DNA of 64,000 nt from a virus (taxonomy: Duplodnaviria; Heunggongvirae; Uroviricota; Caudoviricetes), in IMG/VR virus record IMGVR_UViG_3300037067_004861. One strand, 5' to 3'. Shown here in pieces: positions 38,719 through 46,769 of the stretch (positions within the stretch are counted from its first letter, which is position 1; each line of letters starts with the position of its first letter). A model generated the notes under the pieces. That model saw only the letters and a program-made list of their open reading frames with translations, made no database searches and was not told the DNA's origin. A program made the position numbers and the translations under genes.

Positions 38719-39543
38719 CTAAACCTCTACATCCTCGAAAGGCAACACATAAGGGATACCCTTATCCCGTGCGGCCCGTTTGATATCAAAATATAAGTCA
38801 GCACTACTGATATTACCGTTCGCCCAGGCCAGGGCTCGTGTAACTAAACTATAACCAAGCGTATCCCCGATATGCTTTATCATATCCTGTACTGTCGATA
38901 CGGATTGACGTTTCTTGACGAAGGGGCGTTGGGCTGGCTTCTTCCCAACATCCAAACCCTTTTGCCCATTAAGAAGTGAAGTCTTGATTTTCCTAACAGC
39001 CGCGTACTGATCGTCTGCACTGTCGAGAGTAGCTAATTGCCTAATCTGATATTGATTCAGAACACCAGCCGCGGCCTCCTCTTGAATCTCTTTCGGTAGT
39101 TTGAGTAAGTCTAAACGCACCTGTACCCAAGACCGTGACTTACCCAATTCTTTAGAAATTTGATCTTGAATTAGACCTAATCCCCTTAGTTTCTCTACCG
39201 CATGAGCCTCCTGCAGAATATTCAGTTCTTCGCGTTGCAGGTTCTCCGTGAGGTTGAGTAATCGGGCTTGTAGTTCGGATAACCCCGTCCGAATCATCGC
39301 TGGAATCTCAGTCTTCTTCAAGACGCGGCAGGCAGCGAACCGTCTGTGACCAGCAATGATTCTATAATCATAATTGGGTCCACTAGTTAGCGGTTGGACA
39401 GTAATAGGGAACTGTAGACCATTACGGTCTATGTCCTTGGCTAATTCGGAGACACTAAGTAAGGAGATAGTACCCCTGCAATTGAAATCACTATCACTAA
39501 AAATACGATTGATAGGTATGTTTTTTACTTGATAATCATCCAT
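38719..39543 (-). CDS. ParB-like nuclease-domain/HTH protein
   Basis: YRIIAGHRRFAA (ParB box) followed by an HTH region; adjacent to the DNA methyltransferase. Confidence 0.6.
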   Translation of the reverse strand: MDDYQVKNIPINRIFSDSDFNCRGTISLLSVSELAKDIDRNGLQFPITVQPLTSGPNYDYRIIAGHRRFAACRVLKKTEIPAMIRTGLSELQARLLNLTENLQREELNILQEAHAVEKLRGLGLIQDQISKELGKSRSWVQVRLDLLKLPKEIQEEAAAGVLNQYQIRQLATLDSADDQYAAVRKIKTSLLNGQKGLDVGKKPAQRPFVKKRQSVSTVQDMIKHIGDTLGYSLVTRALAWANGNISSADLYFDIKRAARDKGIPYVLPFEDVEV

Positions 39544-42082: not shown

Positions 42083-44389
42083 TTATTCTTTCTTTAGTTT
42101 CGACTTCAAATCCCCAAGAGTCAGAGATTGTAAATCCCTTTTCTGTTTAAGATTAGTTAGAACCAGTTCGTCCGTGGGGAGATGAATAAGATCAATAATA
42201 GTGGCTCCTCTATTCGTGTCCATTCCGATACGGTGGATTCGGTCTTCCGATTGGATACGTGATTCGCCATTAAAATCATTACTGTAATAGATAATAACGG
42301 GGGAGGCCGTTAGGGTTATACCCATCCCCGCCGCACCAGGTTGACCGATGAAAGCAATCCGTGGATACTTTTCCAGTTCGTCTTGGAAGTTGCTAAGCGG
42401 ATCACCGGGGATATTACTATGCCATCCACGCCCGTCAACCCTGATCCAGGCCCAACCATTGGCCTCACAAATCGCGACAATCCTGTCAACGCTGCCAGTG
42501 AAACCCCCATAGATGACAACTCGGCCAATCTCCATGTATTCATCGAGTAATTCGCACAATGCCTCTTCCTTTGGAGTCTCAATGAATTGAGCCGTGCGTT
42601 CGTGGACTTTCCGCGTCCCCTTACCGCCACAGCCATCACAATCCACATATTCGAGTTGATTTTGTAGATCAGTCTCGTTTGGCCGGGAATCCTCTGGCAG
42701 ATTGGCATTAAGCATCGGGTTCTTAATGGTGCCCTTGCCATTGCAAACAGGGCAGGTTTCCGTACCGACTTCTTTCTCAACATATTGGAAGCCATCGCTT
42801 AGTTCCCTCAATAATGTTAATCCCGCCACAACAGTATGGGATGTTTCAATGATAGTATTAGCAATATCAATGATAGACTGAGAGGGCGGGAGATTGATAA
42901 TTTTGTAGATTTTGTCAGGAAGGTCAATAAAATCCTTCTTGAACTGAACAAGAACCAACCCCTTCATACGCTCATGTAATTTGTAAACCTCGTTCTCCGA
43001 GGGCGTATATGGGTGGTCACAATCAGTGTGGTCATCATAGTAACCACCGCAGATGGAACACTTCTTTTCGTCATCAAGCCAAGAAACAATAGTTGGGTAA
43101 GCCTGCCCGAAAGCAGAGTCATTCTTTTTAATGATAGCTAAACGCTGCCTAAACTTATGGTAGTCGCCCTCTTTCAGGAAACCAGGACAAGCTATCTTGC
43201 ATTGTTGGAACCAGTCTGCCGGACTCTTTGGGGCAGGGGAACCAGTTAATAAGAGAATAAAAGCGGACTCTCCCCAGTAGTTTCTGACAATCTCTGCTAG
43301 TTCATAAGCAGCCACGGATCGTTGAGCCGTTGGGTTCTTTGTCCTAGATGATTCATCGAAGACAATACCCATTGGGATATCACAATCCCTAATGTGATTC
43401 TTACTGACTTTAACTAACTCATTGTAGGTTAATAGCCGTGGATTGATTTTACAATCCCAAACTTTGAACTCCCTGCTTACCCCTCTTAAAGCAGACCGTG
43501 GAGCAGCATACCACCAGTTAGGATTGCCAGACCGCTCCATTGCCTCGATCGTTGCCAAGGTTTTACCGCAGTTATGTACAACGATACCATTAGCAAGGAA
43601 ACTATGATATGGTTCTTCACAAACAATATCATAAACAGAGGAGTAACCAACTGGTTTCACAGATACAACGAAATCATAGTATAGTGTATGTTGGCTACTA
43701 TCATAGACATTCATACTTGTTCTTACTACATCACCAGGAACTAAATCCTTTGCTTCCTTGTATTCATCATAGTTAAAACTTATTTCATGGTCCGGTGTGA
43801 CACGCAGAACATATCCACGCTCGGTGGTTATTTCTACTACCTCCTTGAAACCCTTAAAAATTACGTCTTTAACATCAGCCTTGGCTCGTTTGCCTTGGCT
43901 GTCAAAAGTCCTAATTCTATATCTATTAGTATGGGCTTTCTGATGGAATAAGAAATTAAATTTCTCCAAAGTCCACTTAGCTACGTTAGTTTTATTTCCA
44001 CCAAAAATCTCTACTATCGCGGCTCCATCCACACACCCCATCTCACCAGCATAAACTACTTGCTTATAAGTAAGCATGAAGTCAGCGGCATAACGCTGAT
44101 TGATATACAACGGTCGGACATAATCATGTTGAATGATAGGCTTATCATATTTACCATAAACATCCACACCTTGAAGATATTTTAATCTAAAAGCATTATG
44201 ACTGGAGTTATTGATTCTCCATATCTTTCTTGGTGGGTCGTCATAACCACACCAGTGGGCACCATCCATAGATTTTATTTCAGCTATAAGTCCCTTATTA
44301 AAGGAGAATGTCACATAGATATAGTTGTCAACGTAATCTAATGACACTGGAAACTTATATTTACCAACCCTTAATTTAGTATTTATCAT
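42083..44389 (-). CDS. SNF2-family helicase/ATPase interrupted by a mini-intein in the Walker A motif
   Basis: N-extein ...AGEMG joins C-extein CGKTLATIE to give GEMGCGKT; DEAD-like FDES; LLLTGSPAPKS (SNF2 motif III); HRIGM (motif VI). Confidence 0.7.
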   Translation of the reverse strand: MINTKLRVGKYKFPVSLDYVDNYIYVTFSFNKGLIAEIKSMDGAHWCGYDDPPRKIWRINNSSHNAFRLKYLQGVDVYGKYDKPIIQHDYVRPLYINQRYAADFMLTYKQVVYAGEMGCVDGAAIVEIFGGNKTNVAKWTLEKFNFLFHQKAHTNRYRIRTFDSQGKRAKADVKDVIFKGFKEVVEITTERGYVLRVTPDHEISFNYDEYKEAKDLVPGDVVRTSMNVYDSSQHTLYYDFVVSVKPVGYSSVYDIVCEEPYHSFLANGIVVHNCGKTLATIEAMERSGNPNWWYAAPRSALRGVSREFKVWDCKINPRLLTYNELVKVSKNHIRDCDIPMGIVFDESSRTKNPTAQRSVAAYELAEIVRNYWGESAFILLLTGSPAPKSPADWFQQCKIACPGFLKEGDYHKFRQRLAIIKKNDSAFGQAYPTIVSWLDDEKKCSICGGYYDDHTDCDHPYTPSENEVYKLHERMKGLVLVQFKKDFIDLPDKIYKIINLPPSQSIIDIANTIIETSHTVVAGLTLLRELSDGFQYVEKEVGTETCPVCNGKGTIKNPMLNANLPEDSRPNETDLQNQLEYVDCDGCGGKGTRKVHERTAQFIETPKEEALCELLDEYMEIGRVVIYGGFTGSVDRIVAICEANGWAWIRVDGRGWHSNIPGDPLSNFQDELEKYPRIAFIGQPGAAGMGITLTASPVIIYYSNDFNGESRIQSEDRIHRIGMDTNRGATIIDLIHLPTDELVLTNLKQKRDLQSLTLGDLKSKLKKE
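43571..44035 (-). mobile_element. Mini-intein (about 155 aa, no endonuclease domain evident) within the SNF2 helicase P-loop
   Basis: Starts CVDGAAIVEIFGG (block A), TPDH (block B), ends FLANGIVVHN followed by Cys+1. Confidence 0.65.
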
Positions 44390-45821: not shown

Positions 45822-46769
45822 TTAACCCTCAAGTAGCTTCGCGGCTTCCGCAGCAGCCTCATCAGCACGCTTCTTGGCACGCTCAATTTGACGACGCTTC
45901 TTGGCATCCTCAACCTGGCGACGCTTCTCATTGTACTCAGCTTCCTGCTGGGCCAAGCTAATGGGGTCAAGATTAATGGCGAAAGCAACACCTAACCTAA
46001 ATCCATCAACGGCGGTGGTCGCACCGACCTGGTCGCACATCGCACGACCGACTTCACCCTGCTCCAACTCCGTCTTTAGCTCCGCCATCTTGCGGGCATG
46101 TGGGACTGGGGTAAACGAAGGAGCCGATGCCTCACGGCCTTCCTTGACTGCCTGTCGTAACTCAGCGATCCGAGCCTGCACCGTAGCCACGAACTCAGCC
46201 GGGGCCGTCGTCATCGCGGAATCAACAAAGTTAAGTTGCTCTTCCGGCGGGAGCTTAGCAAGAATGACGGCATTGCTAACTGTGATTTTACCATCATCCA
46301 CAAGAGGCTGGACCCGCTCATCCAACTTGAGCAGACCCAAACGCTGGCTGACCCATGACGAACTCTTGGCCAGATGTTGGGCCATCTCCGAAACCGTCAT
46401 GGTCGGATTGCTGGCGAAAATCCGTTGAAGTTGCTTCGTGTACTCAACGGGGCGAGTCTCAATCGTATGGATGTTAGCCATAATCTGAGCTTCGAGGACT
46501 TCGGAATCGTCTAGAGAGACGATGTTTACCGGAATCTCGTCGAGGCCAAGATCAAGAACAGCCGAGAATCGGTGAAGGCCATCAACTAACTCATAATACG
46601 AGATAGTGTCGCCATCAACCTCTTCCGTCTTGCTTCGCACGCTGATAGGATTCAACAGGCCACTACGGGCGATTGAATCACGAAGACCAACATAACCCTC
46701 CGACTCACTGTTCACGGCACGCAACGCAACTGGATTTTTCCGAATCTCGCTGACCTTAATAACACTCAT
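45822..46769 (-). CDS. ParB/Spo0J-like protein (nuclease/CTPase N-domain, HTH, basic C-terminus)
   Basis: YELVDGLHRFSA (ParB box); C-terminal KKRRQIERAKKRADE. Confidence 0.6.
   Translation of the reverse strand: MSVIKVSEIRKNPVALRAVNSESEGYVGLRDSIARSGLLNPISVRSKTEEVDGDTISYYELVDGLHRFSAVLDLGLDEIPVNIVSLDDSEVLEAQIMANIHTIETRPVEYTKQLQRIFASNPTMTVSEMAQHLAKSSSWVSQRLGLLKLDERVQPLVDDGKITVSNAVILAKLPPEEQLNFVDSAMTTAPAEFVATVQARIAELRQAVKEGREASAPSFTPVPHARKMAELKTELEQGEVGRAMCDQVGATTAVDGFRLGVAFAINLDPISLAQQEAEYNEKRRQVEDAKKRRQIERAKKRADEAAAEAAKLLEG

Follow-up and report, generated by a model that had tools for sequence, protein, structure and literature searches.

A predicted class 1 mini-intein in the Walker A motif of a SNF2-like phage helicase, and its relatives at the same junction

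Inteins concentrate in the P-loops of replication ATPases, as stated in the survey by Novikova et al. (2016, PMC4760082), which locates the DnaB-b, MCM-a, and RFC-S-a inteins in this motif; at the "classic" P-loop site, the insertion lies between the invariant Lys and Thr (PMC5050341). Helicases of the SNF2/HepA type serve as hosts as well: the same survey lists HepA (COG0553, a SNF2 superfamily II helicase) among the top 15 bacterial intein hosts, with 15 inteins, mycobacteriophage C1 encodes a "HEL related to HepA" with two inteins (PMC5050341), and splicing has been shown for the Snf2 intein of Deinococcus radiodurans (Southworth and Perler 2002, as cited in PMC11219805). The host family is therefore an already recognized intein target, phages included. 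Here, we report on an insertion of this kind in a 64,000-nucleotide stretch of DNA (hereafter, the window) from IMG/VR virus record IMGVR_UViG_3300037067_004861, which represents part of a tailed phage and in which a gene for a SNF2-like helicase is interrupted within its Walker A motif. The interrupting segment is very probably a class 1 mini-intein; it appears to belong to a P-loop-targeting lineage found mainly in phage SNF2 helicases and associated with the HNH_3 endonuclease family, seems to have lost that endonuclease, and would have to splice to restore the Walker A motif.

A first-pass annotation, made from the letters of this DNA alone, had placed a mini-intein at positions 43571 to 44035. 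These coordinates were exact; the strand, absent from that annotation, is minus, and re-translation recovered at this position every residue that had been named (CVDG, TPDH, the terminal HN, and Cys+1). The 768-codon open reading frame (ORF) of the precursor contains no internal stops and no frameshifts, and the insert reads CVDGAAIVEI at its start, then LRVTPDHEIS, and finally VYDIVCEEPYHSFLANGIVVHN, ending in VVHN, after which the C-extein continues with CGKTLATIE. Excision of the 155 residues in silico yields a 613-amino-acid (aa) protein with a continuous Walker A motif, GEMGCGKT, so that the exteins do reconstitute GEMG↓CGKT, as had been claimed (the arrow marks an extein-intein junction here and below). 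An identical precursor is present as database protein P0001 and was found on five contigs of independent sources (JGI, ENA, and Logan assemblies), and since the same protein occurs on all of these, the insert is not an assembly artifact. When all six frames of the 64-kb window were translated and scanned with a hidden Markov model of the intein family, no further copy turned up.

Curated profiles, including the Pfam splicing model against which the first-pass annotation had proposed an alignment, recognized the insert above their cut-offs: Pfam Intein_splicing (PF14890) scored 48.6 bits against a cut-off of 35.8 (E = 1e-12), and the NCBIfam/TIGRFAM models intein_Nterm (TIGR01445) and intein_Cterm (TIGR01443) scored 30.6 against 24.5 and 28.7 against 15.6, respectively. 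A profile built on an alignment of the window intein with nine homologs (A2) matched, among PDB sequences, the Ssp DnaB mini-intein (1mi8; E = 2e-13), the Npu DnaB intein (4o1r; 1.4e-12), and the Mtu RecA intein (3ifj; 2.9e-12), as well as the phage-derived gp41-1 and NrdJ-1 inteins. The AlphaFold2 model based on the same alignment (predicted local distance difference test score [pLDDT], 89.2; predicted TM-score [pTM], 0.84) has a HINT fold, consisting nearly entirely of beta structure with one short helix, and disorder is confined to the loop at residues 111 to 114. When this model was compared with the PDB by Foldseek, the top 20 matches were all inteins (query-normalized TM-score [TMq], 0.77 to 0.83), the best being Mtu RecA (3ifj; E = 6e-11), Npu DnaB, and Ssp DnaB, with E values of 6e-11 to 5e-10, target-normalized TM-scores (TMt) of 0.87 to 0.90, and root mean square deviations of 2.1 to 2.8 Å. 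With the class 1 residue set complete as well (Cys1, Thr80-x-x-His83, Asp136 in block F, His154, Asn155, and Cys+1) and block B aligned to the block B region of Ssp DnaB (TANH), the agreement goes far beyond what chance would give, and the identification of the insert as an intein stood.

These residues were compared across 136 inteins, gathered from our searches, that occupy a G↓xGK[ST] junction. Cys1, Thr80, His83, and Asn155 are present in every one of them, Asp136 and His154 in 134 each; at +1, 124 of the inteins have Cys, 11 have Ser, and a single one has Thr. Position 139, on the other hand, had resembled a family signature in the first ten sequences, a pattern that dissolved in the larger set (Cys in 71, Met in 64); because the two residues alternate across the family, a catalytic or redox role of Cys139 was rejected, and, judging from these sequences, the position looks like a buried hydrophobic one. 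Other intein types were considered and ruled out. Class 3 (WCT) inteins are marked by Trp at B:12, Cys at F:4, and Thr at G:5, usually without an N-terminal nucleophile, and since these positions are occupied by Ile85, Asp136, and His154 in the window intein, which does have Cys1, assignment to class 3 was rejected; the class 2 mechanism was rejected likewise. A split intein is incompatible with the single, uninterrupted ORF, and a full-length intein is incompatible with a total of 155 aa, in which a linker of only about 13 aa is found where relatives hold HNH_3. As no endonuclease family was detected in these 155 residues by Pfam, NCBIfam, or PHROGs, the element is classed as a mini-intein, in agreement with the size of about 155 aa and the missing homing endonuclease noted in the first-pass annotation.

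The precision of the insertion was assessed with the spliced extein, for which 2,099 homologs were found at E ≤ 1e-10; presence or absence of the insert was scored in the best 120 of these. About 109 of the 120 lack exactly this insert, being proteins of roughly 550 to 675 aa, whereas in ten a homologous intein occupies the same P-loop junction and in one an intein is found at a second site. In an alignment of helicase homologs (A1), a clean gap between ...EMG and [C/V/T]GK[T/S] was observed in all seven members without a P-loop intein, the intein-free homologs in this comparison being 50 to 63% identical, and the residue preceding the junction, G118 of the N-extein, is invariant. These intein-free homologs do not retain the segment as an integral domain, the outcome that would have counted against the intein, and the proposed insertion into Walker A is precise. 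The +1 residue of intein-free alleles is Thr, Val, Cys, Ile, Ser, or Leu, with Cys in the minority, whereas in the intein-bearing alleles it is Cys in nine and Ser in the tenth, a skew that is predicted by the intein's need for a nucleophile at +1.

That the host is a SNF2-like helicase, as the first-pass annotation had it, is supported by sequence matches. The spliced extein passes the cut-off of SNF2-rel_dom (PF00176; 27.5 bits against 24.9), below which the unspliced precursor falls (20.4 bits); Helicase_C (PF00271) reaches 20.9 bits, just short of its cut-off of 23.5. A phmmer search of the spliced extein against PDB sequences returned ISW1, INO80, SNF2, CHD, and related remodeler ATPases (best E = 9e-12), with aa 452 to 612 aligned to lobe 2 of ISW1, INO80, and SNF2 at this same E value. 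The match to ISW1 is significant over the protein as a whole but weak (6.9 bits) in the N-lobe stretch that aligns AGEMGCGKT to ADEMGLGKT of ISW1; in this alignment, Cys+1 occupies the position of Leu in the canonical SNF2 motif I (DEMGLGKT). In PHROGs, the precursor falls into phrog_62, DNA helicase (4e-38). The intein masks this host in existing annotation: PF14890 alone is listed for the database copy, and the JGI name is "hypothetical protein."

Table 1. Positions in the window of the precursor gene, the parts of the predicted intein, and the two ParB-like genes
Feature	Coordinates	Strand	Remarks
Precursor ORF	42083..44389	minus	768 aa; SNF2-like superfamily II helicase interrupted by a single predicted intein
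N-extein, aa 1-118, ends ...VVYAGEMG	44036..44389	minus	GEMG (44036..44047) is the first half of Walker A/SNF2 motif I
Predicted class 1 mini-intein, 155 aa, HINT fold	43571..44035	minus	465 nt; precursor aa 119-273; no endonuclease domain
Cys1 codon	44033..44035	minus	Block A nucleophile
Block B, T80-P-D-H83 (TxxH)	43787..43798	minus	Intein aa 80-83
Short linker	43682..43720	minus	Intein aa ~106-118; pLDDT <50 at 111-114; position of HNH_3 in related inteins
Blocks F and G, VYDIVCEEPYHSFLANGIVVHN	43571..43636	minus	D136 (F:4), H144, H154, N155
H154-N155 codons	43571..43576	minus	Intein C terminus
Cys+1 codon	43568..43570	minus	Starts CGKT (43559..43570), the remaining half of Walker A
C-extein, aa 274-768 plus stop	42083..43570	minus	Remaining SNF2 ATPase lobes and CXXCXGXG zinc-finger-like insert
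ParB_N + HTH_ParB gene	38719..39543	minus	
ParB_N + HTH_ParB gene	45822..46769	minus	

If the element acts as its residues predict, the HINT domain would fold after translation, and Cys1 would attack the carbonyl of Gly(-1) in an N-S acyl shift aided by Thr80 and His83 of block B. The N-extein would then pass to Cys+1 by trans-thioesterification, cyclization of Asn155, aided by His154, would free the intein, and an S-N shift would leave a native GEMG-CGKT peptide bond, the products being the 155-aa intein, now free, and a 613-aa helicase whose P-loop is intact. In the unspliced precursor, with its P-loop split by 155 residues, ATP binding would not be expected. If its endonuclease has indeed been lost, the intein would no longer be mobile alone; it would be inherited with its gene and would block the homing site against re-invasion. 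Splicing competence is judged probable here from the intact residues, the modeled fold, and the host gene.

The inteins found in close helicase homologs put the window copy in context. Ten such P-loop inteins were identified, six of them mini-inteins (144 to 160 aa) and four with Pfam HNH_3. This endonuclease (about 90 to 130 aa) lies between the splicing halves in relatives (P0009, P0049, P0091, P0116, P0151, P0154, and others), at the canonical position, which a linker of about 13 aa takes up in the window copy. Mean identity is 38% among the inteins versus 60% among the corresponding exteins, with little correlation between the two (Spearman rho, 0.25; P = 0.09); in the most telling pair, P0005 and P0009, the exteins are 85% and the inteins 34% identical, one intein being mini and the other containing HNH. 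From these sequence identities, repeated invasion or replacement would fit better than strict co-descent. By comparison with such relatives, we infer a history of homing and the loss of an endonuclease, rather than its never having been gained. Two of the HNH-bearing P-loop inteins have noncanonical ends: that of P0091 terminates in IIVKN↓C, with a penultimate Lys, and that of P0116 in IVVAN↓S, with a penultimate Ala and Ser+1. To go by these termini, both may be weakened or mechanistically variant splicers.

Four observations speak against the interpretation as a once-mobile and still-splicing intein. In block F, the window intein reads HSF where most of the family read RHF or RNF, so that its His comes one residue earlier. 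While the GC content of the intein is lower than that of its host gene (37.2% versus 43.7%; at third codon positions, 0.30 versus 0.44), the dip is weak as a sign of foreign origin, ranking at the 10th percentile of same-size windows. No remnant of HNH is visible in the 13-aa linker, and the ancestor might thus always have been a mini-intein. Lastly, inteins with intact motifs sometimes splice poorly or only conditionally, and so might this predicted one.

To see how widespread such inteins are, we turned to an exhaustive profile search over 1.84 billion cluster representatives, since a word-indexed search with the 155-aa intein had missed even the identical P0001. The profile matched 10,906 sequences at E ≤ 1e-3, a level that takes in inteins of all kinds; 2,891 of the matches reached E ≤ 1e-10, and 130 reached E ≤ 1e-30. 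Junctions were extracted for the best 150 matches; most of these have the junction G↓C...HN↓[CS]GK[ST], in the majority of cases within a textbook SNF2 motif I (LADEMG↓CGKTIQ). Pfam gave strong SNF2-rel_dom and Helicase_C matches for the SNF2 hosts sharing this junction, with HNH_3 inside the larger inteins. One host, P0140, is adjoined by capsid, portal, and protease genes and hence resides in a phage. Of 135 inteins, 35 are at most 200 aa long, 36 measure 201 to 265 aa, and 64 exceed 265 aa, from which it follows that about a quarter of the family is endonuclease free, like the window copy. The first-pass annotation had considered this host protein and insertion point worth documenting, a view that needs correcting: the junction is among the most populated in the profile search, and SNF2/HepA was already a listed intein host (PMC4760082 and PMC5050341). 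The window locus itself is ordinary for intein biology, with the same spot occupied in well over 100 other helicases and ATPases from public metagenomes.

Hosts other than SNF2 helicases were found with inteins at the same Walker A position (G↓[CS]GK[ST]) at E ≤ 1e-30, most of them with HNH_3. They comprise PIF1-like helicases (P0147 and P0174), AAA (PF00004) ATPases (P0202 and P0204), ResIII/DEAD helicases (P0185, P0192, P0207, and P0238), and an MCM-like primase-helicase (P0181). At the level of sequence, this suggests one intein lineage hopping between the P-loops of unrelated ATPases. We tentatively entertain, as an idea that falls somewhat short of probable, that a phage-borne, HNH_3-associated lineage has specialized on DNA encoding the Walker A sequence G↓xGK[ST] and could thereby jump between nonhomologous NTPases (SNF2, PIF1, AAA, ResIII/DEAD, MCM-like, and RecA-like) instead of moving solely among the alleles of a single gene. 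A more speculative extension would be that endonuclease-free copies are kept because splicing gates helicase activation.

Among deposited phage genomes, this intein family is essentially unrepresented, given that tblastn of the intein and its flanks against GenBank phages yielded five weak matches, none of them in a SNF2 helicase. Of the 80 loci retained from a contig scan with the intein profile and generic C-terminal patterns, none was a SNF2 P-loop case; the scan returned mostly bacterial DnaB, ThyX, RNR, and DnaE inteins and was uninformative on cellular hosts of the junction. Two other phage loci deserve mention in their own right. Gene 204 of Salicola phage SCTP-2 (MF360958.1; L002, 2327 to 4297), annotated as "hypothetical protein," apparently contains two inteins, with the junctions FAGDSG↓CLPED...IVSHN↓SGKSF (a Walker A motif) and ISGG↓CLVAD...VVSHN↓SGQIF; judging from its motifs, this host protein may be a RecA/Sak4-like ATPase. 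An unannotated human-gut phage scaffold (MT835601.1; L003, 980 to 3478) has an 832-aa ORF with an apparent intein at ...YSFNK↓CVSF...ANGIVTCN↓SHAAAY, and this ORF, from its sequence, looks like a DnaE/PolIII-alpha fragment.

In the homing-cycle model, an intein that has lost its endonuclease goes on to decay in its splicing function and eventually disappears. A copy without an endonuclease, such as this one, could therefore be a decayed, splicing-dead remnant, in which case the helicase gene would be a pseudogene or would encode a repurposed protein without ATPase activity; an intein pseudogene, Arth_1007, provides a precedent (PMC3196547). We regard this as very unlikely, considering that the catalytic residues are all intact, that the ORF is open over its 768 codons, that the exteins retain every invariant helicase residue of the A1 alignment, that the modeled HINT fold is confident and complete, and that the precursor is unchanged on five contigs. 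It is more improbable still, to the point of being hardly credible, that the insert cleaves without ligating its flanks, as a bacterial intein-like (BIL) domain or another autoprocessing domain of the HINT type would. BIL and Hedgehog structures did appear among the weaker matches (2lwy at E = 0.005 in the profile search; 1at0 and 6y75 in Foldseek), but true inteins score many orders of magnitude better, and the C-terminal His-Asn followed by a Cys+1 nucleophile is present. Moreover, while BIL domains are known from variable regions of nonconserved proteins, the insertion here is in a conserved catalytic motif that is perfectly closed in orthologs.

A further alternative concerns not what the element is but what it does: rather than being a purely selfish passenger, the intein could be a conditional posttranslational switch, in which splicing is held back, for instance by zinc or by a disulfide between Cys1 and either Cys+1 or Cys139, as long as the infected cell does not offer permissive conditions, and thereby times helicase activation. 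Redox- and zinc-dependent splicing of mycobacterial DnaB inteins has been described (PMC6195587 and PMC7360933), clustering in P-loops has been argued to reflect selective retention (Novikova et al., PMC4760082), Cys1 and Cys+1 are both present here, with the further Cys139 in block F, and mini-inteins persist in 35 of the 135 family members despite their having no endonuclease. However, with Cys and Met nearly balanced at position 139, this residue is not a conserved redox partner, and about 90% of the close orthologs function without an intein, so the helicase does not need such a switch. Since the sequence, in addition, offers nothing that separates regulated from constitutive splicing, we consider the switch unlikely.

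The helicase gene of the presumed mini-intein is part of the phage's replication module. Its neighbors are a DUF5906-type primase, two ParB-like genes, an N6/N4 methyltransferase, a phrog_284 exonuclease, a DNA polymerase of family A, and an ATP-dependent ligase; a tape measure protein is encoded farther off. Megablast of the 6-kb region against GenBank phages gave no match, and this phage is thus not close to any deposited genome. The order primase (DUF5906)-ParB-two small genes-helicase-...-ParB-PolA is common to the window (L001) and two further contigs, L084, which encodes the intein-free ortholog P0003, and L085, which encodes P0049 with an HNH intein at the same site. Because gene order is kept in both, the intein is patchily present among orthologs of one phage group. 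The duplication of the genes with ParB_N and HTH_ParB domains that flank the helicase region (Table 1) is kept in L084 and L085 as well.

Some features of the helicase family itself may be recorded here. At aa ~545 to 590 of the precursor (~390 to 435 after splicing), paired DnaJ-like motifs, CXXCXGXG and CDGCGGKG, resemble a zinc finger; they give weak matches to PF00684 and Lar, and C546, C549, C584, and C587 are invariant in A1. Both this pair and the N-terminal domain of about 100 aa, which is conserved and matches no family, are atypical for canonical SNF2 proteins. The 938-aa homolog P0061, which is without a P-loop intein, has a LAGLIDADG_3-containing intein at WWHQ↓C...AHN↓CEVGCPGF (A1 columns ~559 to 893), meaning that the helicase family has at least two intein insertion points.

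As regards annotation, a tailed phage that is otherwise unclassified regains one of its core replication genes once the intein is recognized, and, for intein biology, the locus is a further data point for the known preference of inteins for the P-loops of replication ATPases. Of greater value than the single locus is the breadth of one HNH-associated lineage across unrelated P-loop ATPases, mostly in metagenomic phages. In the eukaryote Anaeramoeba, related inteins have been proposed to undergo transfer between the P-loops of nonhomologous proteins (PMC10710043), and, if P-loop hopping proves true, the lineage would be a prokaryotic-virus counterpart to these transfers. To biotechnology, a natural 155-aa class 1 mini-intein with Cys1, Cys+1, and Gly at -1 would offer one more engineering candidate among the many that exist.

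Compared with solved structures, the window intein is most like the Ssp and Npu DnaB and Mtu RecA mini-inteins (1mi8, 4o1r, and 3ifj). It shares with these the HINT fold, the TxxH motif, the block F Asp, and the His-Asn end, and is of similar size; their hosts are replication and recombination ATPases. Blocks F and G are very similar, reading VFDLTVPGPHNFVANDIIVHN on the side of the DnaB and RecA mini-inteins and VYDIVCEEPYHSFLANGIVVHN in the window intein. In the 1mi8 construct, Cys1 is, we presume, replaced by Ala. Identity is nonetheless only about 21%, and hosts and insertion sites are different: the Ssp DnaB intein, as read from its flanks, is located in motif H4 (RESG↓SIEQD), and the window intein is located in the P-loop. 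The window intein is small by nature, whereas the solved mini-inteins were engineered by deletion from inteins that contain an endonuclease.

With the known Snf2/HepA inteins, the window intein has in common a SNF2/HepA-type superfamily II helicase as its host, although none of them surfaced as a sequence relative in the tblastn search of GenBank phages; unlike the D. radiodurans Snf2 intein, which we take to be class 3 (WCT), it does not belong to that class. Much closer are the HNH_3 inteins in SNF2 helicases of metagenomic phages (P0009, P0049, P0151, and P0154; L085 and L086), which share the G↓CGK[TS] junction and the class 1 residues and have splicing domains 34 to 37% identical to that of the window intein, P0049 even lying in the same syntenic replication module; the difference lies in their endonuclease of about 90 to 130 aa, which the window copy replaces with a linker of about 13 aa. 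The classic P-loop inteins, finally, likewise interrupt Walker A in ATPases of replication or packaging, occur in phages, and are associated with homing endonucleases, and in both cases the host would be unable to bind ATP before splicing. Whereas the classic site, GK↓T, reuses the conserved Thr/Ser, the window site, G↓CGKT, lies three residues upstream, with its +1 nucleophile in a variable position of the P-loop (Leu in canonical SNF2; Thr, Val, or Cys in this helicase family). This shift of three residues is a difference of detail, not of kind.

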